Position numbers and translations under genes: made by a program. Shown in pieces: positions 5,907 through 32,830 of a stretch of 32,986 nucleotides of DNA (position 1 is its first letter; each line of letters starts with the position of its first letter). The notes under the pieces were generated by a model, which saw only the letters and a list, made by a program, of their open reading frames with translations, was not told the origin of the DNA and ran no database searches. Location: the NCBI GenBank assembly GCA_031259325.1, contig JAIRLM010000003.1, forward strand, positions 1 through 32,986, written 5' to 3'. Source of the DNA: Puniceicoccales bacterium. GTDB taxonomy: Bacteria; Verrucomicrobiota; Verrucomicrobiia; Opitutales; JAIRLM01.

Positions 5907-6989
5907 TTACTCTTCCTTTGCGGATATTCTGGAGTATGCCGCAGAGGCTTCTTCATTGGAAATAGCATGTGAATTCCCCGTATACCCCAAAAGCGTATTC
6001 ATTTGCGAAATTTCATTCCGAAACCAAAATAAAGAAGCCGACGCCTGATGGGGTGGTGTGCCATCGGCAATTTGCTGTCTGGCCTGTGCTTCCAGAGAGG
6101 CAATTCTATTCGGAAGATTGGCTTTGTACTGCTGCGTTATCGCAAGAAAGCTCTCATCAAATTCCCGCTTCAATTTGGTGCAAAATTCAGCAATTTCGGG
6201 CATGCATTGGCTGATAAACGCGTCCGTTTTCGGGTCATAGCAGAGTACGTCCGGGTTATGCGCTTGGCTCAGGTCGTTCACGCGATTGGATTGCATATCT
6301 GAAGTGCCTCCATAACGAACAATCCGCGAAAGATCCCACATGCATTTGGCAAGTTTCAAGTGACTATCAACCCGCGATGAATTTGGGTTTCCTAGCAAAT
6401 CAAGCTCTTTTTTGGGAAGCGTTCTCGTCGGATTTTTGGCTATATTCTGATAATCTGCCTGAAGTTTCTCCAGTTTTTGGCGTACAATCTCTTGGTATCG
6501 TTGATTGTAATCCGATTGTGACGCATCGGATACGATTTGCTTCGCAGCGTCCCGGGCGACATCCGTGTCCTCCGGGTGTGCTCCCGGCGGGAGCATGGCG
6601 TCTGTCATCTCTATAATAGCCTCGTCACGGTGTGCATCCAATATTTTGACATTGGGACTATCGGCGATACCACTTTGCAAATTTGTTATAATTGCCCCAA
6701 ATTTATTTACTATTTGCTGGGCGCCAAGTTGGCTCGTGTGGGCCACGACCGCATTAACTATTTTTTCGGACATCCCGAAAAGCGCATTCGTAATACGCAC
6801 CCACCATCCAACGGCTTCACTCTTTCCTAGGGCTTCCCAACGCTTACCGATGGCCTCCCATTTCGCCCGCAACCCTTCTGCGATGTTCAACCGCAAAAGC
6901 CCCGCCCGCAATCTATCTGCAATTCCCGTATTTTTCCCATCACAAAAAGCGGCGGGATTGCAGCTAGGCCCTGCTACGCCCATACTCAT
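5907..6989 (-). CDS. Hypothetical 360-aa helical protein, candidate secreted effector
   Basis: Long ORF. The track start at 7280 overlaps skp, so ATG 6989 (MSMGVAGPSCNP) is preferred. No signal peptide and no known motif. Confidence 0.7.
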   Translation of the reverse strand: MSMGVAGPSCNPAAFCDGKNTGIADRLRAGLLRLNIAEGLRAKWEAIGKRWEALGKSEAVGWWVRITNALFGMSEKIVNAVVAHTSQLGAQQIVNKFGAIITNLQSGIADSPNVKILDAHRDEAIIEMTDAMLPPGAHPEDTDVARDAAKQIVSDASQSDYNQRYQEIVRQKLEKLQADYQNIAKNPTRTLPKKELDLLGNPNSSRVDSHLKLAKCMWDLSRIVRYGGTSDMQSNRVNDLSQAHNPDVLCYDPKTDAFISQCMPEIAEFCTKLKREFDESFLAITQQYKANLPNRIASLEAQARQQIADGTPPHQASASLFWFRNEISQMNTLLGYTGNSHAISNEEASAAYSRISAKEE

Positions 6990-6996
6990 AAGAATT

Positions 6997-7025
6997 ATTC
7001 TGGCAGGCGTACGCAAGGAGCGCAA
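6997..7025 (-). promoter_or_regulatory. Candidate sigma70-type promoter giving a leaderless transcript
   Basis: TTGCGC-N17-CAGAAT on the minus strand, ending 7 nt before ATG 6989. No SD sequence. Confidence 0.35.
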
Positions 7026-7155
7026 CAAAAAAATGCGGACTCGAGGATGGAGCATTGAAGGATCTACACCTCCGCGCAGCATATATAACACCAGCCGGCC
7101 TTTTCCAATTGACTCGATGGGCCGCAGGTCCACAGAATCGGGGCGGAGATTTGTT

Positions 7156-7737: not shown

Positions 7738-7839
7738 GGCTTTTGCAGCGGAATGGCACTTTTGAAATTCCGCGGACTTGTCCGGATTTTTTATGATTCC
7801 CCGTTGACGTGTGCGTGTCGGGCAATAACTAGTAGATTC

Positions 7840-8553: not shown

Positions 8554-8593
8554 TTGGCCTGGAAAATATTTCCTATGAAGAAATAATAGAAGC

Positions 8594-10111: not shown

Positions 10112-10188
10112 GTTTGTGAATCGCAAGGGAAATTTGGCAAAATTTTTATTTGCTAATTCCTGCGGACTTCATAATTATAGATGGCGTT

Positions 10189-10410
10189 ATGGCGAGTATA
10201 GCTGCGCGCGTTCGGCCATCAAAGTCTCTCAAGATCCATAAGGCCAGTTGCGCCAAAAAGATTGTGGCTAAAAAGGATGACGATCTTCGCCGCCCAAAAG
10301 AGGATCTTATGGATAGCCTAAAAGAGACAGAAGATCTATCGAAGTGCAAGTCTTATTCAAGCTTGGACGAGCTGCTCAGTGATTTGCGATCAAAACATGG
10401 AAATATTTAA
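10189..10410 (+). CDS. Putative antitoxin for the downstream YoeB toxin
   Basis: 73-aa ORF overlapping the toxin start. The C-terminus KSYSSLDELLSDL resembles RelB/DinJ-type antitoxin tails. Confidence 0.65.
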   Translation: MASIAARVRPSKSLKIHKASCAKKIVAKKDDDLRRPKEDLMDSLKETEDLSKCKSYSSLDELLSDLRSKHGNI

Positions 10411-10663
10411 GTCGAAGCGTTTTGAAAATGGCTATGCAAGACTTGTGAAAGAAGATCCGTGTTTGGTTAGAAAGCTCGAAAAAATTATGGCCGCCGTGAT
10501 TACATCGCCCAGGGCGGGAGTTGGGCGACCTGAGCAGCTTAAGGGATATCGCCCGCGGGTAGTGTGGTCGCGGCGTATCATTGGCAAACATCGTTTAGTG
10601 TACGAACTTGGTAAAAATTTTATCGTATACCATTCCTGCTACGGCCACTACGATGATCATTGA
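10397..10663 (+). CDS. yoeB: Txe/YoeB-family toxin (ribosome-dependent mRNase)
   Basis: GVGRPEQLKG...WSRRIIGKHRLVY...SCYGHY, the YoeB signature. Confidence 0.9.
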   Translation: MEIFKSKRFENGYARLVKEDPCLVRKLEKIMAAVITSPRAGVGRPEQLKGYRPRVVWSRRIIGKHRLVYELGKNFIVYHSCYGHYDDH

Positions 10664-11724: not shown

Positions 11725-11726
11725 CG

Positions 11727-13682
11727 CTATGCCTCGTATTGCAGGGTTGAAATGTGGTGTTGTTCGCGCTGTGATTTCTTCCAGCCCCTCCAGCTCTTCC
11801 GACCTCTTCGATGTGGTTTTTCAGGTATGGCAAACTCGTCCATGTTGAGGGTTGGTTTCCCGGAGAGATTGCTTCTTTGAAAGAATTTTTCGTAGGGATC
11901 GCCTTCATCCGGGGAAAGCTCAACAACACGCGGAGATATAATGAACAAGCGCTCCATGGTTTCCGTCGCCCGATCGGCCATACTAAATAGACGGCCGATA
12001 ACGGGAAGATTTTTCAAAACCGGGATTCCACGTCGGCCATCGCTGTGGTGCTCGTAGTAGTACCCGCCAACGATGAGGCTTTGTCCCTCGTTGAGGATGG
12101 ACTGGGTGTTAATTTGACTACTGGTGACCATGGGCATGCCCGCGGAGCCGCCGGTGTCGGACATGGTTCCATCCTCAATGCTGACGAAGAGTTTGATTTT
12201 GCGCTCCACCGTTCCGTCATCCCTGGGAATATCAATAATGTGGGGAATGACGCGAAGGGCGACCTTCGCGGAAACGGTGAACAGATCCGTGGCATAGGCG
12301 CCAGCCACGGGAACATAGGTTTCCCGATTGTTGGAGATGACCGCCGCAATGTTATCCAGCGTCAGCACCGACGGACGAGACAGGGTTTTTGCCGCGCTAG
12401 ATGACTCCAAGGCTTGCAACCTGGCGGTAATTCCCGCGGATCCCATGTTGGGAACTTTTAAATAGAAGTTTAAATTTTTGTCGTCCAGGGTTAAATCGCC
12501 GCCTTCCGGTCTCCAGAGGAGAGAGCGCTCTCCATTAAGGAATTCCAGCACATCGATGCCCATTTTGTGACTTCTACCCACGTTGATATCTACGATGGCC
12601 ACGTCGATTTCTACGGCTTTCGTGGGAACGTCGAAACGCTCAATCAGGGACTGGTAAAATGGCATGAGATCCTTCCGATCCCGTATTATCACTGCGTTCT
12701 GCCGGGCATCGTAGGTAATTGAGGTAAATTTCCCGGTTAGGCTCCGAGACTCCGCTTCTTCAGCCGTGGTTTTAGTTTTCTTATCATCAGTAGTTCGCAA
12801 AGGCTTTGTTGAGAGCTTAGTGATCCCCTTCAATTGCGAAACCTGCGTTGATTGTTTCTTTGCCTCCTGCTCCTGTTGTGCTGCCTGTGCCGCCATTTGC
12901 TGGGCCTGATTTACCGCCGTGGAAACCGCTGACTGCTGCTTAAGCACGCCATCTACGGTATTTGGTTTATTCGGGGCTCCCAGTAGGACGCTTTCCTGCA
13001 TGACATTGGGAATGGTGTTCATTCCGCTCAAAATGCGGGTTAAAAGGGTCGCGACGCCCTCAATGGAGACACCGCTGCCCGTACCGACATCCAGGGTGAC
13101 GTCATAGGCGAACGCATATTTTAATGGAAAAATTTGAACCACGGTTTCATCGGCGAAGTTTTGAATGGTGTTCGTTTGGACCTTGGAGAGGAACGTGCGC
13201 AACACTTCGAGGAACCTGGGCGGACCGCTAGCAACCATCATTTTCGTGTCGGGGACGTAGCGGAGGACGGTGTTGGATCCGGCAAAGTCCAAATCGGCCA
13301 TGACTTTCCGGAGAGATGCGGCTTCCTGCGGCGTCATGGAGATAACCTCGGTCTTTATTTCCGTTCCCGGATAGACGTAAAGCGCGGTGCCGTCGTAGAA
13401 CCAAATCAAATTATACGCCTTTGAGAGCCGTTCCCAAAATTCATTTGGGGCGATGTTTTCAAAAATTCCATTCACGATCCCGGACAACGGAGCGCCGATG
13501 ATCACATCCACATGTTGAATGGCGGTGAAATCATGGATAAGAGCGTTAAGATCCTGGTTCTGTGCAAAATGGTAGTAATGCTCGTCCGTCCATGGAATCT
13601 CGCCGGCTTGGAGCGAATCGCTGAGCAGGAAGAGTCCAATTACCAATGCCGTGGACGAAAGAAAGCGATGAAGTAATTTCAT
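11727..13682 (-). CDS. sctC: Type III secretion system outer-membrane secretin (SctC; YscC/HrcC/EscC family)
   Basis: Signal peptide. N0 domain IPW..YYHFAQNQDL...F..LSKAYNLIWFYDGTALYVY, N1 MVASGPPRF and IFPLKYAFAYD are typical of T3SS secretins. The secretin domain has SRPSVLTLDN, GQSLIVGG, GIPVLKNLPVIGRLF and ERLFIISPRVV. Confidence 0.9.
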   Translation of the reverse strand: MKLLHRFLSSTALVIGLFLLSDSLQAGEIPWTDEHYYHFAQNQDLNALIHDFTAIQHVDVIIGAPLSGIVNGIFENIAPNEFWERLSKAYNLIWFYDGTALYVYPGTEIKTEVISMTPQEAASLRKVMADLDFAGSNTVLRYVPDTKMMVASGPPRFLEVLRTFLSKVQTNTIQNFADETVVQIFPLKYAFAYDVTLDVGTGSGVSIEGVATLLTRILSGMNTIPNVMQESVLLGAPNKPNTVDGVLKQQSAVSTAVNQAQQMAAQAAQQEQEAKKQSTQVSQLKGITKLSTKPLRTTDDKKTKTTAEEAESRSLTGKFTSITYDARQNAVIIRDRKDLMPFYQSLIERFDVPTKAVEIDVAIVDINVGRSHKMGIDVLEFLNGERSLLWRPEGGDLTLDDKNLNFYLKVPNMGSAGITARLQALESSSAAKTLSRPSVLTLDNIAAVISNNRETYVPVAGAYATDLFTVSAKVALRVIPHIIDIPRDDGTVERKIKLFVSIEDGTMSDTGGSAGMPMVTSSQINTQSILNEGQSLIVGGYYYEHHSDGRRGIPVLKNLPVIGRLFSMADRATETMERLFIISPRVVELSPDEGDPYEKFFQRSNLSGKPTLNMDEFAIPEKPHRRGRKSWRGWKKSQREQHHISTLQYEA

Positions 13683-14131
13683 TTTGCGAGACCTCTACTG
13701 TGTGGATTAGACGGGAGCGCCCCCGGTGTGGGATCGATAAGGCCTTTCAGGGCCATCCGGTTATGTTTCACGTTGGCCACGAAATTTTCCACCACTTCCC
13801 CAATGGAATCTTCGGTGGCCGATTCGAACGGAATATTCATTGACAGGGCAAGCTCATCATACTCTGGAACATAGACGAGAACCTCCGGCTCGGCGATGGC
13901 GCGATCGAAATTCAACCGCAGCAAATCCATGCATTTGTCCAACTTCGCAAATGCGGTGGAGGCTTCCTTCACAAGTTGTCCTTCCAGCAGAAGGTTCTTG
14001 CCGCTGTTTGCCAAGAGGCGGATTTGCGACCCGTCGCCGAGCACAACTCCATAGTTGCCGTTTCCATCGGCTTCCCAGCTGAAAACGCCCAGCTCTGCAG
14101 CGATAACGGAAATCACCTCTTCCCTTTGCAT
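13679..14131 (-). CDS. Class I type III secretion chaperone (CesT/SycE-like)
   Basis: 150-aa acidic protein with the pattern DGNGNYGVVLGD...LLRLNF...ELALSMNIP...VENFVANVKHNR. Its stop overlaps the sctC start by 4 bp (ATGA). Confidence 0.72.
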   Translation of the reverse strand: MQREEVISVIAAELGVFSWEADGNGNYGVVLGDGSQIRLLANSGKNLLLEGQLVKEASTAFAKLDKCMDLLRLNFDRAIAEPEVLVYVPEYDELALSMNIPFESATEDSIGEVVENFVANVKHNRMALKGLIDPTPGALPSNPHSRGLAK

Positions 14132-14145
14132 ACAACAGACGGCTG

Positions 14146-14174
14146 AAGTTACCTAGAAGGATTTTGACTGGCAA
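14146..14174 (-). promoter_or_regulatory. Candidate sigma70-type promoter of the chaperone-sctC operon
   Basis: TTGCCA-N17-TAACTT on the minus strand, 14 nt upstream of ATG 14131. Confidence 0.4.
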
Positions 14175-14231
14175 GGAAAATCTTCCAAATCACCCCGCTG
14201 GACGAAACTTATCGTGTCGCCGGGGTGCACT

Positions 14232-14726
14232 TTACGCCCTGCTCCGCGTCCACCAATCGCGCAGACGGTAAGGATAAACGGCCAAATAGAGGCTTTCAAG
14301 GACAATGCCATAGGCGAATACCTTTATGCCTAAGGCCCACCATTGGTAGTGGTCTAAAAGCGCATTAAGCACGGCCGCCGCCCAAAGTAGCTGCAAAATT
14401 ACAACGCCGCGAACGGCCAGAAAGCCGTAATTTCGCCAAATGGCCCCCGCCGCCAGAAGGACTAGGAAAGCCTGAAAAATCCTTCGATGCCCGCCGAAAT
14501 CCGCATCGCTCAGCGTGGAAAATTTCCAAAAGAGGCACACCACCGCTGCTAGAAAAATGCTGAAATTTATCCATTTGTTGAATAGGATCCTGTAGACGAA
14601 ATCACGCTCAAACGGATGCCAAACCACCAGCGCCAACACGCCAACGGGAATAAGACCGGCGAAAATCAAAAACCACACGAACACACCGTAAATGCGATAG
14701 TCCGAGATGCCACAAAAAATCTCCAT
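14232..14726 (-). CDS. Hypothetical multi-pass membrane protein
   Basis: About 5 hydrophobic segments with LSDADFG, FLAVRG and YPYRLRDW. Start ATG 14726 is preferred because 14825 overlaps the HEPN gene. Confidence 0.75.
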   Translation of the reverse strand: MEIFCGISDYRIYGVFVWFLIFAGLIPVGVLALVVWHPFERDFVYRILFNKWINFSIFLAAVVCLFWKFSTLSDADFGGHRRIFQAFLVLLAAGAIWRNYGFLAVRGVVILQLLWAAAVLNALLDHYQWWALGIKVFAYGIVLESLYLAVYPYRLRDWWTRSRA

Positions 14727-14794
14727 CACGTCAGAACCCGCGACGGCATCTTGAAAATATTGCCAATTGTGGATGATGGAAACAGAAATTTTCC

Positions 14795-15226
14795 ATGGTC
14801 GCCGATGGACTTTTCTATGAGCCACTTGTCCGCGCGCTTGGAACCTTGGAAGAGGCCTTGAATTCTGCGCAAAAACGGCCCAACGACCTTATCGCCCGGG
14901 ACGCAACCATCCAGCGCTTCGAGTACACCTACGAATTAGCAACCAAAATCCTGCGGCGCTACTTGGTCATGCAGGCGTTGAGCGGGGACGAAATCGCCCA
15001 GATGGGCTTCAAAAACCTGATACGGGAGGCCAACGCGCGGGGCATTCTTCGCGGAGATGTGGCACTTTGGGATAGCTTTCGCGAGGCTCGGAACCTGACC
15101 GGCCACACTTATCGGGCGCCGATAGCCGACGAAGTTTTTGAGAAAATCCCCGCCTTCATCGGCGAAGTAAGATTTTTTCTCGATGAACTACGACGCGTAG
15201 AAAGGACGGAAAATGGGGATCATTGA
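14795..15226 (+). CDS. HEPN-domain protein, HI0074-like nucleotidyltransferase substrate-binding subunit (toxin)
   Basis: RDATIQRFEYTYELA and the Rx4H motif RNLTGHTY. Confidence 0.9.
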   Translation: MVADGLFYEPLVRALGTLEEALNSAQKRPNDLIARDATIQRFEYTYELATKILRRYLVMQALSGDEIAQMGFKNLIREANARGILRGDVALWDSFREARNLTGHTYRAPIADEVFEKIPAFIGEVRFFLDELRRVERTENGDH

Positions 15227-15533
15227 CCTCACTCCGGAGCAGATGCAGTTCGTGCGTGTGACCTTGGCCAGGCATCTCATAAATAGCGGCGCAACGGTGT
15301 ACGTGTTCGGCTCGCGGGCGACGGGCAAGGCGCGGAAGTTTTCCGATTTGGATCTGGCCATAGATTACCCCGACGGCATTCCCGAAAACACATTGCTAGC
15401 CCTGAAGGACGACTTCGAGGAAAGTAACTTCCCCTACTTCGTGGACATCACCGACTACCACCGGTGCGACAGACCATTCCAAGAAATCATCGACCGAACG
15501 AATACCCTGCTTACCCGATACACACCAGGATAG
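15213..15533 (+). CDS. Minimal nucleotidyltransferase (MNT) antitoxin
   Basis: VYVFGSRATGKARKFSDLDLAI (GSx10DxD) and FEESNFPYFVDI. Overlaps the HEPN gene. Confidence 0.9.
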   Translation: MGIIDLTPEQMQFVRVTLARHLINSGATVYVFGSRATGKARKFSDLDLAIDYPDGIPENTLLALKDDFEESNFPYFVDITDYHRCDRPFQEIIDRTNTLLTRYTPG

Positions 15534-20646: not shown

Positions 20647-20916
20647 CGATTGAAATGCGCGGTTTTGCGCCTAGTTGTTTCTTGTTTTTGCAGTGTCCTA
20701 GGGTTAAAAAACGTGTGTGCCAATTACGGACGGACTGCGACGAAATTCTAAGCTCTTTACTAACTTGTGTATAAATTTTGCCGCTTACAACCAGCCATAC
20801 GGACGCGTCTTTCAAATCCTGATTATATTTTATAACGTATGGGAGTTTAGCCGTAAGCATCTCTAGCGCAACAGAAAAAAATCCACCCAGGTCAAAAATT
20901 ATCAGGCTTTGCTATA
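20643..20916 (-). mobile_element. IS630-family remnant: left end plus transposase N-terminal HTH fragment
   Basis: KYNQDLKDASVWLVVSGKIYTQVSKELRISSQSVRNWHTRFLTLGHCKNKKQLGAKPRI resembles the IS630 HTH (YSxDLR...GRPR). TATAGC on the minus strand at 20916-20911 resembles an IS630 terminus. No DDE domain. Confidence 0.6.
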
Positions 20917-22272: not shown

Positions 22273-23937
22273 ATGAAAAATTCTAACAGTTCACCGCGCC
22301 AAGATTCGGAACCGTGCGGGGAAAAAATTGACGAACGGGAGCTCAAGGATGGCTCCAAGGACCGGGCAAAGGACCAGTCGCTTCTCCAACGCATCATAAA
22401 GGGGTTAACCCGCAATGACCGAAAATTTCGCGAGATCGTCATCAGTCGCCAGCTGGGCATAACCCGCGTCGCCGTGCTCATTGACGGCATAATGGAAAAT
22501 TTTGAAACGGATGCCTACAGGGGCGCGGATCTGGTCGGGGCCATTTTCAAGGGGCGCATTCAAAAGCTCGAGGACGGGCTAAAAGCGGCCTTTGTCATCA
22601 CCGGACAGGAAAAAAATGCGTTTCTCCACTACTGGGACATGCTTCCAGCGGCCAATGATAGCTTTGAGGTTGTCACCAAGAATCCGGCAAAATCCAAAAT
22701 TACCCCGGATGACATTCCGCGCATGTACCCGGTTGGTGCGGAGGTTTTGGTGCAGGTTTCAAAGGCGCAAATGGGGACCAAGGGGGCACGGGTTACCACG
22801 AATATCACCGTCACCGGCCGCTATCTCATACTAACCCCGTTCAATGAACAGTGTGGCATATCGCGGAAGATTGAGGACGAAAAGGAACGGGAGCGGCTCA
22901 AGGGCATTTTGGAAAAATTAACCGTCCCAAACGGCATGGGGATTGTCATCCGGTCCTCCGGCGCGGAAAAGAAGCTGAAGTTTTTCATCCGCGACCTGTC
23001 CATTCTGCTCTCCCGCTGGAAAGCTATTTCCAAAAAAGCGAGCGAAATGGAGGACCCAGGATTGGTCTACCGGGAACCGGGACTGATCGGCCGGTCCGTG
23101 CGAGATTTTCTCACCGATGACGTGGATCGTATTGTAACCGACTCGCCACAGGTCTTTGACGAAATCGTCTCCGAAATCAACGAAATCGCGCCGCAACTAC
23201 GGGGAAAGGTGGAACTTTACAAAGATGAGATGCCGGTTTTGGAACACTTCAACGTCGAAAAGCAGGTCCAACGCACATTCAGCCGGCGCCTTCCCCTGCC
23301 ATCCGGTGGAGAAATCGTTTTAGAGGAAACGGAGGCGCTCATCGCCATCGACGTAAACACAAGCTCGCACAAGGTCGCAAGGGATGAGGGGAAAAATCTC
23401 CTCCTACAGGTCAATTTAGAAGCCGCGCGGGAAATCGTTCGGCAAATGCGACTGCGAAATCTGGGCGGGCTCATCATTATCGACTTCATCGACATGAAAA
23501 ACAAGGCGGATCAGAAGCAAGTCTTCGACGCTGTGCAGGAATTGATGTCCCATGACAGCGCCAGGTTTCAAATTTTACCCATTTCGCCCATGGGGATCAT
23601 GCAAATCACCCGACAGCGCCATTCGCAGAGCATGGGCCGGGAAATGCGCATTTGTTGCCCCTATTGTTCCGGCCGGGGAACCGTCCAATCACCCCAGACC
23701 ACGGCCATGGTTCTTCAGCTGGAAATCCTACGCACCCTCGGCCAATTGCGCAAGGACAGCAGTAATAAGCGCACGCACACGCTGAAAATTTTTCTCCATC
23801 CGCAGGTGTTAGATGTCCTCCGGCAACAGGAACGGCAAATTCTTGAAAATTTAGAAGATACCTACGGCGCCCGACTTTTTTTTCAGGCAGATGAAACCAT
23901 GCACTTGGAAAATTATAAAATCCTCCAGGAAATTTAA
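22273..23937 (+). CDS. rne: Ribonuclease E/G family
   Basis: S1 domain GAIFKGRI...AAFV, KGARVTTNI, IAIDVNT, RLRNLGGLIIIDFIDM, Zn-link CPYCSGRG. No long C-terminal scaffold. Confidence 0.93.
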   Translation: MKNSNSSPRQDSEPCGEKIDERELKDGSKDRAKDQSLLQRIIKGLTRNDRKFREIVISRQLGITRVAVLIDGIMENFETDAYRGADLVGAIFKGRIQKLEDGLKAAFVITGQEKNAFLHYWDMLPAANDSFEVVTKNPAKSKITPDDIPRMYPVGAEVLVQVSKAQMGTKGARVTTNITVTGRYLILTPFNEQCGISRKIEDEKERERLKGILEKLTVPNGMGIVIRSSGAEKKLKFFIRDLSILLSRWKAISKKASEMEDPGLVYREPGLIGRSVRDFLTDDVDRIVTDSPQVFDEIVSEINEIAPQLRGKVELYKDEMPVLEHFNVEKQVQRTFSRRLPLPSGGEIVLEETEALIAIDVNTSSHKVARDEGKNLLLQVNLEAAREIVRQMRLRNLGGLIIIDFIDMKNKADQKQVFDAVQELMSHDSARFQILPISPMGIMQITRQRHSQSMGREMRICCPYCSGRGTVQSPQTTAMVLQLEILRTLGQLRKDSSNKRTHTLKIFLHPQVLDVLRQQERQILENLEDTYGARLFFQADETMHLENYKILQEI

Positions 23938-24059
23938 AGGACGTAATCGATGTTTTAGTTCGTAAACTGGTGCCAAGTCGTCATTACAGGCAAATTGTGC
24001 AAAAAGTTTCACTGTAATCATTGACAATATTCAAGTAAGGTCATAAATGCGTATCCGAT

Positions 24060-25934
24060 ATGAGCACTCACAATGTTGGCTTAGCGGGGGGATTCCTTCT
24101 GCCTTTGCGCGGAAAATTGAAACAAATGGGGACTGGCGTTACGTACGCCACTGATGGAGTTGTAATCACTTGCACAAACGCAACTTTGAGATCGGGCACC
24201 TTTAACCTTGGCCGTGCGCTGCGTTTCATCGTTCAAATTACCGGCATTGGTGCGCTGATACTTTGGGTGGCGGAAAGCCGAATCGCCCGTAGCGAGCCTA
24301 AATCTCCGCGTACGCTTACGAACGCACTCATCGCCATCTCGCATTGGGCGCCACTGACTCAAAAAACAGGAGATGGGGCGCGTATCGCCAAAGAACGCTT
24401 GGGGGCAGTCGTTAAGGCTACCGAGGGAATTACAAGAATAGCTGCAGAACCGGTCCCTGTCCAGCAATTACCTGACCTAAATGTGTCCGTCGACGACAAA
24501 CTGCCAGCACCACCGGAGGCAGTAAATGTTCCGCCACTGGAAGACCATCCAGTGAAAGGACCAGAATCACGTAACTTAAACATACCCAGCGTCGACAAGC
24601 CATTGGATCGATCGGAGAAAACAGACGTTCAGCCGCCGGAAGACCATCCAGTGGAAGGACCAGAATCACGTAACTTAAACACACCCAGCGTCGACGAGCC
24701 ATTGGATCGATCGGAGAAAACAGACGTTCAGCCGCCGAAAGATATTCCAGTGGAAGGACAGCCCCCTGCACCACAACCGGAACAAGCGCCGTCGCCGGTT
24801 GCATTTGTAGATTTTTTAGCCAAGGTAGACATCCCGGACGCCGAATGCGCACTCGTGCGAGCCGCGCGGGCCAAACTTGGATTCGCAGGAGAGAGAAATA
24901 AGGGTACAATAGAGACGTGGAAAAAAAATCCTCATGGTACAAAAAGCCAACTTGGCCAAGCCTTTAGGGACAAAATTGATAAGTATTTGAATGAAGGTTA
25001 TACGGAACTGCAGCCGGAAATAGCGGCTCTGGTAGCCAAGAGCCCATGCTTATCCATGCGGAATGTATCGCCGGATGAAATCACCGCGCTTGCTAAGCGG
25101 CAAAATGATAACCCGTCGGTATTTACCATCGTATCTGGAATGCCGGTAGAAATTTTACAACATATCCCGTCCGCCGACAACGGCCGACCACCAATTGTGC
25201 AAGTGGCAAGCCAGTTCAACGGCTGCGAATCTCCATGGGCGCATTTAGTCGAACTCCCAACTTATGTGCGCGACCGCACGCAGGGTCCTGGAGCCAGCCT
25301 GACCGCGTTGGTAGCCGCCGCATTGCGTCTCGAATTTTTTCGAGCCCAAGGGTATGACGCCATGAAAGAATGCCTGACTGGGTGCACGGTGACAACAGCC
25401 GAAGGCGATAAGTCCATATGCGCCGCATATCCGGAACTTTGCCAAAACGGATATTTTCAGCCTCATGTCATCGGCAACACGGAACATTTGCGCGTCCTGG
25501 AACAGTGGCTGGAAAACCACAAAGTTTCGACTATGGCACAGTGGGTGCAATGTGAGGAATCGGGCGCGGTGCAATTGCAGGTGTTTAACGCTGCCGCATC
25601 CTTCCAGAACGTCAAGGTGACATGGAACGCCACGGATGATGAACGGACGAAATTATTGATAAACATATGTAGACACACACTCGTTGGGCAGTACCGAGCG
25701 TTGGCACGAGTAGCCGCTCATACCGGCCAAGATTTACATCTAACCTTGGTTGGGATGGGCGTATTTCATAATCCACCCGCACTTGTTACAGACATATTAC
25801 GCGCGACTAACGAAGAGCTTGTCGGAGCTGGTGTGCGTGTGTTCCTGCATGCATATGCACAGAAAGATGCCGACCTCTGGGGTGCTGCCATAAAAGCAAA
25901 TAACCTCACAAACGCAAACATTTCGCTGGCCTAG
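24060..25934 (+). CDS. Hypothetical 624-aa protein with Pro/acidic tandem repeats and a C-terminal macrodomain/PARG-like domain; candidate effector
   Basis: Long ORF. C-terminal motifs QVASQFNGCE, YVRDRTQGP and LHLTLVGMGVFHNPP. Confidence 0.75.
   Translation: MSTHNVGLAGGFLLPLRGKLKQMGTGVTYATDGVVITCTNATLRSGTFNLGRALRFIVQITGIGALILWVAESRIARSEPKSPRTLTNALIAISHWAPLTQKTGDGARIAKERLGAVVKATEGITRIAAEPVPVQQLPDLNVSVDDKLPAPPEAVNVPPLEDHPVKGPESRNLNIPSVDKPLDRSEKTDVQPPEDHPVEGPESRNLNTPSVDEPLDRSEKTDVQPPKDIPVEGQPPAPQPEQAPSPVAFVDFLAKVDIPDAECALVRAARAKLGFAGERNKGTIETWKKNPHGTKSQLGQAFRDKIDKYLNEGYTELQPEIAALVAKSPCLSMRNVSPDEITALAKRQNDNPSVFTIVSGMPVEILQHIPSADNGRPPIVQVASQFNGCESPWAHLVELPTYVRDRTQGPGASLTALVAAALRLEFFRAQGYDAMKECLTGCTVTTAEGDKSICAAYPELCQNGYFQPHVIGNTEHLRVLEQWLENHKVSTMAQWVQCEESGAVQLQVFNAAASFQNVKVTWNATDDERTKLLINICRHTLVGQYRALARVAAHTGQDLHLTLVGMGVFHNPPALVTDILRATNEELVGAGVRVFLHAYAQKDADLWGAAIKANNLTNANISLA
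24539..24760 (+). repeat. In-frame 99-bp (33-aa) tandem repeat, about 2.2 copies
   Basis: Units start at 24539, 24638 and 24737, encoding EDHPV(K/E)GPESRNLN(I/T)PSVD(K/E)PLDRSEKTDVQPP. The first two copies are nearly identical. Confidence 0.95.
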
Positions 25935-26015
25935 GAGCATTGCCGTGTGGCCCGAACAACACTCGTCTTGGGGCCGCTCAATGGCCTAATTCATTTGGCG
26001 CCAAACGTGCCATTG

Positions 26016-26278
26016 GACTTATTGCAAAAGTCAAACTCGCAATTCTCGAACTCGCAATTCATGCGATGGAGAATGACCGAGAACAATTTTTGCAAAAAAT
26101 CTATTTTTAACTTGCTAAGTTTGACCATGTTGTAAGGCTCCGCCAGCTTATGAGTATGGAAAGGATAGGCGGGAGTGTTCCACATCTCGCGGTAGGTGAT
26201 AGCACGGCTGCTATTGTGCTGAACCCTGGACTTCTACCGGCAGTCGCGACAGAGCGCTTGGCCGGAGCGGAAACCGTG
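26016..26278 (+). repeat. Direct repeat copy 1 (upstream region plus first 43 codons)
   Basis: Aligns colinearly with 27265-27525, e.g. GACTTATTGCAA, TTTTGCAAAA, TTTTAACTTGC, CTTATGAG, TGTTCCACATCTCGC, GGACTTCTACC. Confidence 0.92.
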
Positions 26279-27256
26279 GACCTGGCCCACGCAAAATCCG
26301 CAAATAGTACCGCCTGGACAGAATTAGATAGACTCGTACGTGATGGTCTGTTTTACCGTCTAGACGTGGGCGCCGTTCGAAGTGTGCTCGGATTATTTCC
26401 TACTAGAGAGGGTGACATTGAAACGATTCGAGCGAATACGCTGGCGCTTCAACAGGAAATAACGGCTTTGCAGGCGGTAATAGTTACATACCGCAGAGCA
26501 CTTGAGCAACTAAGGGAAGTCAAGGGCATATGGGAGATGGAATTTTTAGGCAACGAATACGTACTACTCACATCGAAATGCATACAGAAGACCGACTATA
26601 GGTTGCTATGTATAATAGACGGTGTTCCCGAAGAGGAAGCCGAAGAGGTTCCTGGTATGACCAGGTATGAAGCCGCCCAGAACGTGCTGGAGGACATTAT
26701 TGAGCTACTCCAAGGTACAGGAGAGAACGTGTGTACCGGAAGACTACAAGCCGCAATTGTAGCCGTACAGCAGACGATAGATGCTGAAATGGAGGCGCGA
26801 AGGATCCAGGAAATACGACAGAGCATGATGCCCCAATATGGGCGCGTGTGTCTTGAATGCAGGACGTTGTGCAACACAGTTCAATGCATGACACGGTTTG
26901 CAAGCACGTTGGACCTCGCTCATATCACTGAGCTTATGCGTGTTGACAACATGGGAAACACAGTCGAAGAAATCCGAAGGACTATCGAAAGAATGCAGGC
27001 CGCAATACGGCTTTTTAATCGGATGCTCGTCAATGATCTAATTTGGCGTATCTTAGAAATGTTCATCGGTGAATTGAAGAAGCGTGGACTGGATCCAAAC
27101 CAAACTATAAAGGCGTATCGTGATTTTGCGGGTGACGTGGAGGCTAATGGCGGCGACGCATCGCCAGAAGCTCTGGAACCAGCGAGAGCCGAAGTGCTAA
27201 GGTTGAAGACGCTACTGCCCGATGTGCACAATAGACTTTTAGAGATGGACTATTGA
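26150..27256 (+). CDS. Hypothetical 368-aa coiled-coil-rich protein, candidate effector
   Basis: Long ORF with heptad-like segments (TLALQQEITALQAVI, VEEIRRTIERMQAAI). No signal peptide. Confidence 0.75.
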   Translation: MSMERIGGSVPHLAVGDSTAAIVLNPGLLPAVATERLAGAETVDLAHAKSANSTAWTELDRLVRDGLFYRLDVGAVRSVLGLFPTREGDIETIRANTLALQQEITALQAVIVTYRRALEQLREVKGIWEMEFLGNEYVLLTSKCIQKTDYRLLCIIDGVPEEEAEEVPGMTRYEAAQNVLEDIIELLQGTGENVCTGRLQAAIVAVQQTIDAEMEARRIQEIRQSMMPQYGRVCLECRTLCNTVQCMTRFASTLDLAHITELMRVDNMGNTVEEIRRTIERMQAAIRLFNRMLVNDLIWRILEMFIGELKKRGLDPNQTIKAYRDFAGDVEANGGDASPEALEPARAEVLRLKTLLPDVHNRLLEMDY

Positions 27257-27264
27257 ATTGAATA

Positions 27265-27525
27265 GACTTATTGCAAGAGTCGGAATCGCAATTCTCGGGC
27301 TCACGATCCGTGCGGCGGAGGATGATCATGAACGATTTTTTGCAAAAGTCTATTTTAACTTGCCAAGTCTGGCCACGTTGCAAGGCCCGCCAACTTATGA
27401 GCATAGGGAGAATAAGTGGGAATGTTCCACATCTCGCAGCAGGGGATGGCACGGTTGGTGTTATGTCGAACCCGGGACTTCTACCAGCAGCCGCGACGAA
27501 GCGCCTGGCCGAAGGGGAAGCCGTG
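27265..27525 (+). repeat. Direct repeat copy 2
   Basis: Diverged copy of 26016-26278, beginning 8 nt after the stop codon of 26150..27256. Confidence 0.92.
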
Positions 27526-27601
27526 CGTCGAGCAGAATGGACGACGGGAGATGGAATTTTTCGATAACAAACGGGTGCTGTTCCCAGCGAAATACCTGTA
27601 A
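27397..27601 (+). pseudogene. Internally deleted, frameshifted paralogue of 26150..27256
   Basis: 27 of the first 43 residues are identical to the upstream gene. GGGAGATGGAATTTTT at 27546 matches 26532 and gives EMEFFDNKRVLFPAKYL* versus EMEFLGNEYVLLTSKCIQ in a shifted frame. Confidence 0.8.
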
Positions 27602-27655
27602 GAGCTCTAATATCTCGATCTACTGGCGTAGGAACCTTTTTGCGAAAATTTGTGT

Positions 27656-28804
27656 CTATTCCACATCTTTGGCGAGTGATTGGCGGGTGCTGGGGCAACC
27701 GGCGCGCAGCCAACCGTTTATGAATAAATCCAAGTCGCCGTCCATGACCGCTTGAATATTACTCGTCTCGACCCCCGTGCGCAGGTCTTTCACCATTTGG
27801 TAGGGCTGAAAGACATAGCTGCGGATTTGGTATCCCCATCCAATTTCGCCCTTTGCGCCATAGAATTTTTCCAATGCGGACCGCTTTTCGTCCTGTCGCT
27901 GTTCGTAGATGCGGGCCCGCAGGACGCGGATGGCGGCCAATCGATTCTTTTGCTGGGACCGGTCGTTTTGACAGGTGACGACAATTCCGCTTGGCAAATG
28001 GGTGATGCGCACGGCGGATTCGGTTTTGTTCACGTGCTGGCCGCCCTTGCCGCTCGACCGATAGGTATCGACGCGCAGATCTTCGTCGCGGATTTCGATT
28101 TCTCCGTCATCCTCGATTTCAGCAATCACGTCCACGGAACAGAAAGATGTATGCCGGCGCTTGTTGGCGTCGAATGGGCTGATTCTCACGAGTCGGTGAA
28201 CACCCCGCTCCGCCTTGCAGTAACCATAGGCGTTTGTGCCGATGAGCCGAAAGGTTGCCCGGGAAATTCCCGCCTCGTCCCCCGATTGTATGTCTTGGAT
28301 TTCACATTGAAATTCCCGCAACGCCGCCCAGCGGGTGTACATGCGCAGTACCATTTCCGCCCAATCGCAGGCCTCCGTTCCACCGGCACCCGAGTGAATG
28401 GTCACGATGGCATTGCTATTATCATGGGGTCCGCGGAGAAAGGACTGGAGCTCAATGTCATCCATGCGCCTTTGCAGATCTTCGCACAAATGCACGACTT
28501 CCGAAAAATCCACAGAAGACTCCGGCGCCAATGTATCGGCCAGTAATTCGACGTAGGCCCGCAGGTCGCGCAGGTCACTTTCCAGGGCATCAAGCGGTGC
28601 CAGCGGATGACGCAGGTCATTTACTTCCTTGATGATACGCTGGGCCCGGTCCTGCGAATTCCAAAATTTCGGATCGGACATCACCGCCTCCAATTCTCCG
28701 ATGCGCCGCAGCCTTCGGTCCACGTCCAGAAAGACGCGTAGTCGGGCCAGGCGCCGTTCCAGGGCGGCACATTCACCGTTCAAATCTGCCCATGTTTCAA
28801 TCAC
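27656..28804 (-). CDS. prfB: Peptide chain release factor 2
   Basis: GAGGTEACDWA, ERGVHRLVRISPF (SPF specificity motif), GGQHVNKTESAVR, IRSYVFQPYQMVKDLRT. Single uninterrupted frame. Confidence 0.97.
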   Translation of the reverse strand: MIETWADLNGECAALERRLARLRVFLDVDRRLRRIGELEAVMSDPKFWNSQDRAQRIIKEVNDLRHPLAPLDALESDLRDLRAYVELLADTLAPESSVDFSEVVHLCEDLQRRMDDIELQSFLRGPHDNSNAIVTIHSGAGGTEACDWAEMVLRMYTRWAALREFQCEIQDIQSGDEAGISRATFRLIGTNAYGYCKAERGVHRLVRISPFDANKRRHTSFCSVDVIAEIEDDGEIEIRDEDLRVDTYRSSGKGGQHVNKTESAVRITHLPSGIVVTCQNDRSQQKNRLAAIRVLRARIYEQRQDEKRSALEKFYGAKGEIGWGYQIRSYVFQPYQMVKDLRTGVETSNIQAVMDGDLDLFINGWLRAGCPSTRQSLAKDVE

Positions 28805-28965
28805 GATGGTGCATATTTGTAATTATAATATTCTCCGATGGGCAATTCCGGATTTTGTGACCATGGGCGTGAAGGCCTCCAAACCGCGTAATTTCAGTTC
28901 CAAAGACGGATCCGCCGCCGGAACTCGGTTCTTTACATATCCCTGCGATTTCCAAGGATCCTCCG

Positions 28966-29865: not shown

Positions 29866-30649
29866 CCACGCGCGCGCAGTCGATCCAGTCCAGGTATAGG
29901 GTAAATTTTGTTTTTGGTTTCCTCCCGTCGACGCCGTCCGGCGCAACGGGTTCCGCCTCAATGCCTTGCAATACAACCGGCATGGACCGCATTTTATTTA
30001 CGAACCTGCGAAATGTACCCGTGGAACAGCTGAACTGTAACCGGAATGAATATGCTCCGTCCCTTGGAAATTGAAAAAGTGGTACGAATTTTCGCGCGTC
30101 AAATAGGTCATTGGGAAAGCGTGCCAGTTCCCGCGATTCACCGGCTCGCTGAAGGGATATGAACTGCAAATCCCCGTCGGATATGCGAAACAGGGCCGTT
30201 AGCAAAAGGCGCGTGAGCTCCAACTGGTCCTGAATTTTCGCCGCGTCCCAGGCCATTCCCCGGCGTATGAAATCCGAAAAGCCAAATCGCGGCCCGTCGG
30301 CAAAGATAATCCCGGACGACACCGCCTCCTGTTCCAACCGGTGCATGGTTTCTATCAAATGGAAATAGGCATCGGTGGCGGTAACGGCGGGGCCCTCTCG
30401 GTGAAACTGGGCAAACGGATGCGCCTGCCAGGCTTTTGCAAATTCCTCCGTTAGTTGCCGTTGCCGGACAAGAGTTCCTCCGGCGACATTTCCAAGCCTC
30501 TGCCGCGTGTCCATTGCTTCCCGGTAGGTGGTAAGCAATTTCTGGTGCCGTACCCGCAACCGCATGTGGGCGACGGCCAAGAGCACAAACACAACGGCGA
30601 AGGCGACCCACAGAATGGTCCTGCGATGACTTTGTAACATGCGATTCAT
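29846..30649 (-). CDS. Amuc_1100-like / PilO-like type IV pilus alignment protein
   Basis: N-terminal TM anchor, coiled coil, then AYF...EAVSSGIIF...FGFSDF and FRLQFSCSTGTFRRFVNKM. Coupled (ATGA overlap) downstream of the PilM-like gene. Confidence 0.65.
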   Translation of the reverse strand: MNRMLQSHRRTILWVAFAVVFVLLAVAHMRLRVRHQKLLTTYREAMDTRQRLGNVAGGTLVRQRQLTEEFAKAWQAHPFAQFHREGPAVTATDAYFHLIETMHRLEQEAVSSGIIFADGPRFGFSDFIRRGMAWDAAKIQDQLELTRLLLTALFRISDGDLQFISLQRAGESRELARFPNDLFDARKFVPLFQFPRDGAYSFRLQFSCSTGTFRRFVNKMRSMPVVLQGIEAEPVAPDGVDGRKPKTKFTLYLDWIDCARVATPNHH

Positions 30650-32232
30650 GGCTTAAAATATTTGGCGTTCAATGTGATTGTGCATTGGAAGGGTTGCGCA
30701 CCCGGACGGGCCTCGGCAAGGGTTAGATTTCCCGTGGAACCAACAACGGGCAATGTTTCCAATTGTTCGAAGAACCGGCGAAATTTTGGTAAAATCTCCT
30801 CACCTTCATCGGCAAAGATACAACCGCCGATGGCAACTTCCCGCGGGGCGTCCCCGGATGATGACATCACCCGCAATTCGTCCAACCATCCATTCCCGCC
30901 GGCCACCAAAATATCCTGCAGTTCCTGGAACAGAGCCGTCCACGCCGCCTGGCAGGAGTGCACTTCGTTGGCCCGCTCCAATTGGGCGCGATATCCTTCC
31001 ATTTCCCCATTGAGTCGGCCGATGGACACCGCCGTTACTCTTTCTTCATCCGTTTTTTGGCGCAAACTGGCCAAATTCTGCCGCAATGCGTAATTTTGCG
31101 TCACGTGGTATAAATTTCCCAGCAGTAAAACACCGCATGCGACGGCACAGGCGGTTACTTTTGCGAGAAAACACCGGGCCTGCCGTTCCTTTTGCGCGAC
31201 CGCCGGGGGAACGACGACGGACGGATTGTCCATGGTTCCATTAAATAGCATTTCGGCACCGTGAAAAAGATGCATTCGGGTAATTTCATCCGGCACTTCT
31301 CCGGGAGCAGAAATTGGACACTTCCAGCTTTCGTTTACTACAATAACATTGGTCGGGTGTGTGAGATGTTTTTTAAGAAACCTAATCCAGGATCGACTTC
31401 CAGGTCTACTGCTAACAACGGCCATTTGGGTGTGGGGTCTTCCCTGAAGGCGGTGGAAGTAGTACAACTCGCATGTGTGAATTTCCGCCGCCAGTTCGTG
31501 AAAAAATTCATCCATCTTTTCCGCCAAATCTCCATTTCCAGAACAATCATTTTTTATCCAATCATCCCATTGGGCTTCGGCGTCCCCGTTCCCCAAAACG
31601 CGGGTCCATCCGTGGGGAAGACAGCGCGCGTAGGGGCGTTCACCGCCGGTAAAAACTAGAGAAATGGCTTCCTCGTCGATGCAGAGTTGGAGGAAATTTC
31701 CCGCATCCGCCGCCATGGCCGAGGAAAATTCAATGGCCAGTGGAACAAGCGCGCCTCTGGGATAGATTTTAGCGCGAAGAAACGCATCGAATATGGGCTT
31801 TACCTGCGACCAACGTTCCGCGAAAACGTAGGAGAGAAAGCGTTCGCCGGTGTCGTAGACGTGCAGGGGAAAAAAGTCCCAGGCAAATGCGTCCGATTTG
31901 ATGGGCAAATCCATTTCGATGGCGTCGGCGAGCATGATTCGACGCAAATCCGGCGCCACCGGGTGGTGTATGATGCACTTATGCAGTGGATGAATTTTTG
32001 GCAAAATGACGTGGCACCGATGCCGGCGAAATCCCTGGGGAACTTTGGCGAGCGCCGCGGCGAGGGATTCGGCCCCTCCATCGGCTAATGGTTGGGTAAA
32101 TATCCGTTTGATTTTGCAGGCACCCTTGGACCCTTCAGCGATGGCGGCCACAAGCCGACGCCGGCCGATGGAAATAATGGTCAACCGGCGTTTCATCCAG
32201 GGCATACTACACAGGCATTGGGGCAAACGCAT
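30646..32232 (-). CDS. Divergent PilM-PilN fusion (type IV pilus assembly protein)
   Basis: Actin-like N-terminal region (AIEMDLPIKSDAFAWDF; FHELAAEIHTCELYY), one TM helix, a coiled coil, and a PilN-like C-terminus (W..LFQELQDIL...WLDEL...F.CTITL). Confidence 0.65.
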   Translation of the reverse strand: MRLPQCLCSMPWMKRRLTIISIGRRRLVAAIAEGSKGACKIKRIFTQPLADGGAESLAAALAKVPQGFRRHRCHVILPKIHPLHKCIIHHPVAPDLRRIMLADAIEMDLPIKSDAFAWDFFPLHVYDTGERFLSYVFAERWSQVKPIFDAFLRAKIYPRGALVPLAIEFSSAMAADAGNFLQLCIDEEAISLVFTGGERPYARCLPHGWTRVLGNGDAEAQWDDWIKNDCSGNGDLAEKMDEFFHELAAEIHTCELYYFHRLQGRPHTQMAVVSSRPGSRSWIRFLKKHLTHPTNVIVVNESWKCPISAPGEVPDEITRMHLFHGAEMLFNGTMDNPSVVVPPAVAQKERQARCFLAKVTACAVACGVLLLGNLYHVTQNYALRQNLASLRQKTDEERVTAVSIGRLNGEMEGYRAQLERANEVHSCQAAWTALFQELQDILVAGGNGWLDELRVMSSSGDAPREVAIGGCIFADEGEEILPKFRRFFEQLETLPVVGSTGNLTLAEARPGAQPFQCTITLNAKYFKP

Positions 32233-32365
32233 GGGAAGACGCTAGCGTTGAATGATTCCTTGTAAACGATGAAAACAAAAACACCACGGCCACTATGACG
32301 GAGGAAACTCTACTACGCAATAAAACGACTACAAAACAGTAACGCGCAGCCAACGCCTACCATCC

Positions 32366-32830
32366 CTAGCCACGATGAGACCCGACGAGAGAATAAACCT
32401 CCGCCTGATCATCCGGAGATACCCCATTTACCTTAAGCGCACAGGAAAAAATACATCTAGATACATGCCATAAAATAAACCTCTCAAGTGGCTTCTTCGC
32501 CATTACCTCGCGCACCGCTTCGGGCACCAACTTTATGATGGCATCCCGGAACGATTGCTTTTCGCCTTCGCCGGTTACCGCATCCAGCCCATAAATAAAA
32601 AGTGCCAGCGCCGATAGCGAGGGAGCATTCCATATGGACACCGCCCGCATCAACGCCAAATCCACCTTCAGCGTAACCACACGCTCCAGCCGCGAAACCA
32701 GCGCCGCCTGCTTTTCCTCATTCCCTTCACACGCGCGGAACGCTTGCATAAATCGCACTATCGTCCGATCGTGCGTCTCACCCGCACGCGAAGCATCGAA
32801 GGTGCTACCAATAACCGCAGGACTCAACAT
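32366..32830 (-). CDS. Hypothetical 154-aa helical protein
   Basis: ATG preceded by GAAGAGG. No motif. Confidence 0.65.
   Translation of the reverse strand: MLSPAVIGSTFDASRAGETHDRTIVRFMQAFRACEGNEEKQAALVSRLERVVTLKVDLALMRAVSIWNAPSLSALALFIYGLDAVTGEGEKQSFRDAIIKLVPEAVREVMAKKPLERFILWHVSRCIFSCALKVNGVSPDDQAEVYSLVGSHRG

Follow-up and report, generated by a model that had tools for sequence, protein, structure and literature searches.

The window analysed here, a stretch of 32,986 nucleotides that makes up the entire contig C21 of a Puniceicoccales bacterium (genome G000), encodes a type III secretin and five open reading frames (ORFs) that begin alike: P1 (start at 6989), P2 (24060), P3 (26150), P4 (27397) and P5 (32830). 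A sequence-only reading had taken these starts as a shared signature of effectors of a type III secretion system (T3SS). We found that the five ORFs are four unrelated, genus-restricted families of reduced-genome, Puniceicoccales-like Verrucomicrobiota, one ORF being a fragment, and that most of the resemblance of their starts is due to duplication and family descent. The likeness would have three sources: a tandem copy (P4) of the promoter, leader and N-terminus of P3, with the same 5' module on a giant gene of contig C12; N-termini that are conserved and inherited inside each family; and a genus-level bias of domain-less proteins (orphans) towards Met-Ser, glycine at position 6 or 7 and ~30 initial residues that are small, polar and probably disordered. 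That the alike starts arose in this way, and that a subset of the orphans may be T3SS substrates, is a reading to which we give about an even chance.

Duplication and family descent behind the similar starts

Translation confirmed the five ORFs and the N-terminal peptides that had been reported for them (Table 1). They are real, lineage-restricted and without Sec signal peptides, as had been claimed, but they do not amount to five cases, since 27397 is a duplicate fragment of 26150 and two of the five thus go back to one duplication: P4 is probably a gene remnant, in which the 5' end of P3 has been copied in tandem and cut short. Local alignment of the regions from -100 to +40 around the starts gave a score of 73 for P3 and P4 and of 23 for P3 and C12:9488, against a maximum of 17 among 3000 random start-region pairs. 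At C12:9488 begins the gene of a 1725-amino-acid (aa) protein which carries the 5' module of P3, with the same leader and start, and two internal segments of this protein show weak similarity to P3. CTTATGAGCATAG is located at 27394, and the start region at C12:9488 reads GGCCAGTTTATGAGTATGAAC. The copy at 27397 retains the first ATG of P3 and not the second, which favours the start at 26150 over that of the public gene call (P0055; second ATG, 26156); residue 4 of P3 is Glu. A phmmer search with P3 against 1.84 billion representatives matched only P3 itself and the P4 ORF, no PDB sequence matched with E < 0.07, and there was no usable ESM Atlas neighbour. The C12 gene (C12:4311-9488 (-), 1725 aa) is one of four giant ORFs, the others being C17:152-12448 (-) with 4098 aa, C28:4659-13436 (+) with 2925 aa and C26:4464-14408 (+) with ~3300 aa; Pfam scans of three of the four gave no firm family.

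P1 has a paralogue in the same genome (G000:C9:17622-18725), homologues in the same-genus genome G001 and one further homologue (P0054, 55% identity) in a search of 5.8 billion proteins. In an alignment of P1 (P0001), the C9 paralogue, P0054 and a G001 homologue, Met1 and Ser2 are invariant (4/4); the N-termini read MSMGVAG, MSAGVAG, MSLGISA and (MD)MSMRVS, with the consensus MSxG[VI], and the public gene call of P1 has the identical 360-aa start. P1 and its C9 paralogue are also alike upstream of the start (local alignment score 22 over -100 to +40) and have the block GTCCGCATTTTTTTGTTGCG in common. P1 gave no match to Pfam, NCBIfam or PDB sequences (none in PDB with E < 0.07) and no usable ESM Atlas neighbour; its AF2 model has a pLDDT of 73, with residues 1-32 below 50, and no fold match in Foldseek (best E 0.15). 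Relatives of P5 turned up in G001 and G011 alone, and the G001 orthologue aligns from residue 1. No recognisable domain was thus present in P1, P3 or P5 (Pfam, NCBIfam, PDB, Atlas and fold searches). The proposed start codons are well supported, as judged from the invariant Met1 and Ser2 of the P1 family, the P5 orthologue, the support of the P4 copy for the P3 start and the conservation of residues 5-40 in P2.

These P2 residues are conserved in five aligned genus relatives and in an orthologue, P0008, so that the public call of the 24060 gene (P0006), with a TTG 42 codons further 3' as its start, probably misses the true N-terminus. The N-terminal module of P2 occurs in four genomes of the genus (G000 and the same-genus genomes G001-G003), where it is joined to open frames of 88-923 aa with differing C-termini. 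Within residues 1-148, one hydrophobic segment, centred at 59-66, exceeds 1.4 (Kyte-Doolittle, 19-residue window). The 99-bp tandem duplication in the linker was found by direct comparison and had been missed by Tandem Repeats Finder and by a second repeat finder. The C-terminal domain has no Pfam match at E <= 0.01 and no NCBIfam match; its predicted structure (AF2 model, pLDDT 93, pTM 0.92) adopts the macrodomain alpha/beta/alpha fold, with a Foldseek E of 7e-5 to 5zdc/3sih, and in the VIA comparison it reached a Z of 15.7 with poly(ADP-ribose) glycohydrolases (PARGs; 225-235 residues aligned, rmsd 3.6-4.2 Å) and of 13-13.6 with MacroD/Af1521-type domains. The catalytic signature of bacterial-type (DUF2263-like) PARGs is GGG-X6-8-QEE; P2 (P0002) contains no GGG, QEE or GG.G string and lacks this signature. 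For this previously unnamed domain family we detected 48 homologues, which include proteins of an intracellular pathogen and of an amoeba symbiont: some carry the name of Pajaroellobacter abortibovis, one is a kinase fusion from Candidatus Berkiella, and another has histone-fold Pfam matches. Macrodomains also occur in purely bacterial contexts. A search for related loci with the whole of P2 found none.

N-terminal bias of domain-less proteins and the secretion machinery

We surveyed the N-termini of the whole assembly, which comprises 838,471 bases in 47 contigs with 50.8% G+C and a completeness rating of 79%. ORF calling by a simple codon-usage score gave 618 ORFs, of which 301 passed the survey filter (at least 100 aa, score of at least 20, and first ATG no more than 15 codons from the upstream in-frame stop); Pfam was searched at E <= 1e-5 with 299 of the 301, two ORFs of contig C44 being left out. 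The 299 fell into 79 Pfam-less ORFs, 213 Pfam-positive ORFs and seven that were set apart as eukaryote-type or giant after their names had been seen: three UCH proteins, an LRR protein with a Tyr-phosphatase, a Fic protein, a protein with a weak LRR match and a 4098-aa DUF3638 protein. Serine at position 2 (Ser2) was found in 21 of the 79 Pfam-less and in 12 of the 213 Pfam-positive ORFs (odds ratio 6.1, p 3e-6), and glycine at position 6 or 7 in 21/79 vs 15/213 (p 3e-5). Both differences persisted without the three discovery genes (18/76 vs 12/213, p 4e-5, for serine; 18/76 vs 15/213, p 2.5e-4, for glycine). The fraction of S, T, P, G and N in residues 2-25 was likewise higher in Pfam-less than in Pfam-positive ORFs (0.325 vs 0.259, p 3e-6), and a crude signal-peptide-like N-terminus was rarer (2/79 vs 21/213, p 0.048). 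The sequence-only reading had called for a comparison with housekeeping genes, and the Ser2 and glycine frequencies turned out to be unequal, with the orphans ahead. A discrete shared motif, as it had proposed, did not emerge: a regular expression modelled on its peptides matched four of the 79 orphans, three of them the discovery genes, vs 1/213 (p 0.02). The lack of an obvious Shine-Dalgarno (SD) sequence, which it had also pointed out, is true of the named genes but not distinctive, because an SD-like tetramer at -20 to -4 was present in 21/79 Pfam-less vs 73/213 Pfam-positive ORFs (p 0.26) and many housekeeping genes of the window are without one too.

The serine bias is positional, since serine makes up nearly the same share of whole proteins in the two classes (6.1% in Pfam-less vs 5.6% in Pfam-positive ORFs), and it does not reflect a nucleotide motif, since the Ser2 codons of the orphans are mixed (AGT 7, AGC 7, TCN 7). 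A Ser2 member occurs in 18 of 70 orphan families, and the Ser2 orphans are long (median 432 aa). Their S/T/P/G/N fraction in residues 3-30 is 0.362 vs 0.300 in other orphans (p 0.0014) and 0.261 in Pfam-positive ORFs. The serine codon TCC accounts for 21% in orphans vs 38% in annotated genes. Two Pfam-less ORFs of the window, at 2-526 (+) and 15603-16238 (-), have paralogues (C39:11359, 707 aa, and C43:288-875) which both begin with Met-Ser (MSYASGAP and MSLKFHAI). On contig C36, several Pfam-less ORFs accompany a portal protein of Mu type (PF06074, E 1e-56), which is encoded at about 14018-15211 (L045:12838-14031). The region may be a prophage or what is left of one, so that some of the surveyed orphans may be phage genes.

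The same pipeline was applied to about 400 kb of each control genome, with random samples of the selected ORFs. In G001, of the same genus (118 of 169 ORFs sampled), Ser2 was found in 6/31 Pfam-less vs 5/87 Pfam-positive ORFs (p 0.036) and Gly at 6 or 7 in 6/31 vs 11/87 (not significant), i.e., the glycine bias was not replicated. G016, from another family of the same order, with a reduced genome and a T3SS ATPase (137 of 186 sampled), gave 4/28 vs 12/109 for Ser2 (p 0.74) and 3/28 vs 14/109 for glycine; G015, a 2-Mb relative with no SctN match at E <= 1e-100 (132 of 209 sampled), gave 0/23 vs 6/109 and 0/23 vs 7/109. As both biases are absent from the orphans of G015 and G016, they are neither an artefact of the pipeline nor a generic property of orphans. 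The serine bias is a trait of the genus, strong in one genome and weak in a related, non-independent one. A Pseudomonas-type test of three rules was passed by 11/79 vs 9/213 ORFs of G000; we give it little weight because G015 shows enrichment for two of the three rules as well.

The T3SS secretin that had been recognised in the window was verified as SctC, and the rest of the apparatus lies elsewhere in the genome. The closest public relatives of SctC are three 'MAG: Puniceicoccales bacterium' records (86, 60 and 57% identity). Outside the window we found the non-flagellar components SctN (above the TIGR02546 cut-off), V, J, U, T, R (FliP/SctR), D, K, L and YscO/SctO; to judge by these matches, the genome encodes a full non-flagellar injectisome, the function of which is predicted. 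Its genes are spread over at least five contigs among housekeeping genes, the true dispersion being hard to judge across contig breaks. Three CesT chaperones are encoded in G000, one of them within the window, where it adjoins none of P1-P5. The two others are at G000:C36:19346-21825 (L046:1-2480) and on C40 (L078:4-444), and one of these lies directly 3' of a 602-aa Pfam-less ORF, a candidate chaperone-substrate pair. Proteins of eukaryote type comprise three UCH proteins among those scanned, an LRR protein with a Tyr-phosphatase, and a Fic protein. The three UCH proteins, with deubiquitinase domains matching PF00443 at E 8e-31, 2e-19 and 2e-10, are the scanned members of a seven-member paralogue cluster (G000:C14:2349-4604, C18:4205-5746, C18:5782-7179 and four more ORFs), in which two tandem copies start with MCSV(A/L)SV. 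The LRR protein at G000:C26:224-4294 (-), of 1356 aa and with a weak protein-tyrosine-phosphatase match, belongs to an eight-member paralogue cluster.

Serine is given as the most preferred residue of type III secretion signals, generally and at most positions (PMC3589343). The orphan N-termini have a signal-like composition, and G000 encodes a full injectisome along with three CesT chaperones and domains of eukaryote type; the most likely function for a subset of the orphans would therefore be that of T3SS substrates. Such proteins would travel unfolded and N-terminus first, their N-termini serving as an unstructured export signal that is read by the T3SS export gate, and 5' modules may have been reused on new C-termini. 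P2 might in this manner deliver a membrane-anchored PARG-like macrodomain to a host membrane, where ADP-ribose would be bound or removed.

Competing explanations

The sequence-only reading had rested in part on a 13-mer common to the starts at 6989 and 26150. This 13-mer, CTTATGAGTATGG, is indeed present across both start codons and occurs exactly twice in the genome, and the two proteins are unrelated, as had been stated (BLASTP E 2.9). As a shared start signature it fails, because in relatives of P1 the peptide is kept and the nucleotides are not: the C9 paralogue reads TTCATGAGTGCAG, and the G001 homologue, with MSM, uses TCT for serine. P2, with ATATGAGCAC at 24058, shares only ATGAGC (Met-Ser) at its start. 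GCCAG is found upstream of both starts, as claimed, but at different spacings (-15 to -11 before P1 and -8 to -4 before P3), and the copy at 27397 reads GCCAA. We estimated the chance of an identical -3 to +10 from position-specific frequencies at 493 predicted ATG starts (1.7e-6 per pair) or from 5696 ATGs that open at least 100 codons (4.5e-6); this corresponds to 0.0007-0.002 identical pairs expected among the ~30 genes of the window and 0.2 among the 493 starts of the genome, in which one unrelated pair (C28/C17) likewise has such a 13-mer in common. The 13-mer is therefore probably a coincidence between two Met-Ser-Met families and not an element, and with middling confidence we regard both it and GCCAG as having no function in themselves. 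That the shared nucleotides (GCCAG ... yTTATGAGTATGr) form an RNA or DNA element by which P1, P3, P4 and the C12 giant are co-controlled, be it through a regulator, a small RNA or a secretion signal borne on the mRNA, is in our view very improbable. The genome-unique pair, the registered-match probability of about 1e-3 in the window, the start region at C12:9488 and the fact that a 7-nt gap brings the GCCAG contexts of P1 and P3 into line would all agree with such an element; P3, P4 and the C12 gene, however, have it by descent, the P1 family has let the nucleotides go, the spacing differs, and a scan of 23900-27700 for sigma-70-type promoters gave three matches vs 3.9 expected, none of them intergenic. 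A TTGC[AG]AAAA box upstream of orphans was dropped, its degenerate pattern having 381 matches genome-wide, with housekeeping genes, e.g., dnaK, among them, and sigma-54 and sigma-28 boxes, inspected by eye only, did not fit in spacing.

A more sober alternative is that the starts are alike through paralogy and coincidence, that the orphans are no T3SS substrates, and that the Met-Ser bias reflects the origin or processing of young, weakly expressed genes, e.g., through removal of the initiator Met leaving a stabilising serine, or through initiation preferences in an SD-poor genome. We hold this for possible, though less probable than not. It would fit the single duplication behind two of the five cases, the 13-mer that relatives do not conserve, the P1-P3 alignment score (13 over -100 to +40, the 99th percentile of the random pairs), the low SD use across the genome and the lower share of TCC in orphans, as expected of a different class of expression or age. 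Random or mis-started ORFs, however, would give about 6% Ser2 and not 27%, the same pipeline found no such bias among the orphans of two further genomes, Ser2 goes together with more polar first 30 residues in long proteins from 18 of 70 families, and the genome invests in a T3SS and three chaperones. Several observations weigh against T3SS substrates as the explanation of the bias, the first two of them also in favour of this alternative. In the T3SS-bearing G016 there is no Ser2 enrichment, so Ser2 is no requirement of a T3SS, and only one of the seven proteins set apart has Ser2, although the UCH, LRR-phosphatase and Fic proteins among them rank first as a-priori candidates for effectors. 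G001, a relative of G000, is no independent replicate. In the orphans of G015, too, there is enrichment for serine making up at least 10% of the first 50 residues and for an absence of D/E from the first 12, and most of these orphans have signal peptides of the MK... type, so neither feature is specific to type III secretion. The survey starts came from a home-made caller, and that of P1 was moved by hand from 7280 to 6989 (the uncorrected start still gives MS but no Gly at 6 or 7); the P2 orthologue P0008 starts with MN and not MS. The boldest form of the idea, a lineage-specific N-terminal code (Met-Ser with the serine exposed after Met removal, Gly at 6 or 7 and polar, disordered first 30 residues) that would mark at least ~20 otherwise unannotatable proteins, giants included, as the effectors of an uncultured, host-associated verrucomicrobium, built by shuffling of 5' modules (leader plus signal) onto new C-termini, seems to us unlikely.

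For P2 and the relatives of its N-module, insertion into the envelope by Sec/YidC has to be considered, the 130 residues then being a cytoplasmic tail and signal-anchor. The single hydrophobic segment of P2 (~52-72) is homologous to, and aligns with, the Sec-signal-like h-region of a C12 macrodomain paralogue, and in P0009, an 824-aa hypothetical protein of a different Puniceicoccales MAG, two tandem PARG-like macrodomains follow a classical signal peptide. These Sec-like N-termini indicate that P2 may use Sec, which adds to the points against type III export. A periplasmic domain that processes ADP-ribose would, however, be without an obvious substrate, and the protein is conserved over fifty residues before the hydrophobic segment is reached. 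Membrane proteins that have such segments and are delivered by a T3SS include the well-known Tir and the chlamydial Inc proteins. We consider Sec/YidC insertion quite unlikely. The explanation we prefer thus combines duplication, conserved families and a genus bias with a subset of orphans as candidate T3SS substrates.

Genomic setting and comparison with known systems

The small size of the genome is usual in its family (all 13 other listed same-family genomes have 0.7-1.4 Mb), and the housekeeping genes among which sctC lies in the window include those for H+-pyrophosphatase, PGI, FtsW, RNase G and a release factor. Next to the T3SS chaperone, at 14795-15533 (+), overlapping genes encode a nucleotidyltransferase substrate-binding (HEPN-like) protein and a minimal nucleotidyltransferase, a toxin-antitoxin-like arrangement. 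A YoeB-family toxin (PF06769, E 9e-13) is encoded at 10150-10663 (+), with a small ORF 5' of it that may be the antitoxin. At 4428-5783 (+), PTS EIIA-2 (residues 15-135) and a weak DacZ_P sensor match are fused to a DisA-type diadenylate cyclase (315-441), EIIA-2 being an uncommon partner for a c-di-AMP synthase, and a 104-aa ORF at 20546-20860 (-), with a weak match to the N-terminus of IS630 transposase (NF033545, E 1.6e-4), is probably a remnant. A ~60-bp sequence repeated near contig ends (C12:73, C40:184, C42:73, C11:4093(-) and C39:13589) probably breaks the assembly.

Table 1. Coordinates of the features discussed, as positions in the window
Feature	Position	Strand	Description
P1 gene	5907..6989	-	360 aa, MSMGVAGPS...; all-helical; no known family; first ~32 residues predicted disordered
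CTTATGAGTATGG, first copy	6980..6992	-	across P1 start codon; sequence match
Upstream block GTCCGCATTTTTTTGTTGCG	7021..7040	-	common to P1 and C9 paralogue; family-specific 5' region
SctC	11727..13682	-	type III secretion outer-membrane secretin; TIGR02516 E 2.8e-109, above cut-off; Pfam Secretin, Secretin_N, T3S N0
CesT-family type III chaperone	13679..14131	-	PF05932 E 1.8e-10, 41.4 bits vs cut-off 22; 4-base overlap with sctC start
P2 gene	24060..25934	+	624 aa, MSTHNVGLAGG...; N-terminal module, Pro-rich duplicated linker, C-terminal PARG-like macrodomain
P2 N-terminal module	24060..24449	+	residues 1-130; conserved [IV]G[LF]xAGFL, hydrophobic segment ~52-72, then ALIAxxHWxP
99-bp tandem duplication	24540..24734	+	copies 24540-24635 and 24639-24734, 93/96 nt identical; encodes EDHPV(K/E)GPESRNLN... 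repeat
P2 C-terminal domain	24777..25931	+	residues 240-624; predicted macrodomain fold, nearest bacterial-type PARGs
Source copy of tandem duplication	26013..26279	+	~137 bp upstream and first ~43 P3 codons
CTTATGAGTATGG, second copy	26147..26159	+	across P3 start codon; sequence match
P3 gene	26150..27256	+	368 aa, MSMERIGGSVP...; strict singleton
Duplicate of P3 5' region	27262..27528	+	few bases 3' of P3 stop codon; about 80% identical over ~265 bp
P4	27397..27567	+	56-codon ORF, MSIGRISGNVP...; P3 similarity stops after ~43 codons
P5 gene	32366..32830	-	154 aa, MLSPAVIGST...; no family; no nucleotide motif in common with P1-P4

A literature search found no paper that joins Puniceicoccales with type III secretion, and broader searches, covering listings and abstracts, brought up no work on effectors of the T3SS in reduced Verrucomicrobia. 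Should the Ser2 orphans be substrates of the T3SS, their bias would yield a cheap first effector list for reduced-genome Verrucomicrobiota, and a new PARG-like macrodomain family, found in other intracellular bacteria too, would join the host-directed activities. If they are not, the case calls for caution, since the 'signature' seen in a single window is mostly a tandem duplication, family N-termini and a coincidental 13-mer. An injectisome with a lineage-specific, serine-rich, modular effector set is of a known kind, of which the candidate set described here would be a new member.

Type III secretion signals of the T3_MM and BPBAac type occupy the first ~25-30 residues, have no consensus and are Ser-rich, polar and flexible; the orphans resemble them in their Ser2 bias, their richness in S/T/P/G/N and the rarity of signal peptides, but differ in that the bias is concentrated at Ser2 and Gly 6/7, concerns about one quarter of the orphans, is genus-specific and is absent in the T3SS-bearing family of G016. 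Salmonella SPI-2 effectors have a common N-terminal domain, and effectors are said to undergo terminal reassortment, reportedly described by Stavrinides et al. in 2006. Comparable here are the P2 module of 130 residues, which occurs in four genomes of the genus on varied C-termini in frames of 88-923 aa, the P2-type macrodomain, which has other N-termini in other genera, and the P3 5' module (leader and first ~43 codons), which was copied on its own; in contrast to shared translocation modules, the hydrophobic segment of the P2 module could equally be a Sec signal-anchor, its role in translocation being putative. The dispersal of T3SS genes among housekeeping genes and the several CesT-type chaperones resemble the organisation of a Chlamydia-like injectisome, whereas the host here is a verrucomicrobium, SctC is nearest to Puniceicoccales MAGs and contig breaks limit the comparison of dispersion. 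Chlamydial Inc proteins, whose defining feature is a bilobed hydrophobic domain made up of two adjacent transmembrane segments, likewise form families confined to one lineage, in a reduced genome whose T3SS genes are scattered, and combine an N-terminal region, a hydrophobic domain and a variable C-terminus; P2, however, has one segment above the hydropathy threshold, unlike an Inc protein, and no sequence relationship to them. With bacterial-type PARGs (PDB 3sih, 5zde) the P2 domain shares the fold in its predicted structure, 225-235 of 248-274 residues being aligned, and a conserved GxGxF-type loop (LVGMGVFHNPP), whereas identity is 13-15%, GGG-X6-8-QEE is absent, the P2 domain family has motifs of its own (IVQVASQFNxLES and DxTQGP), and the likeness is one of predicted fold.

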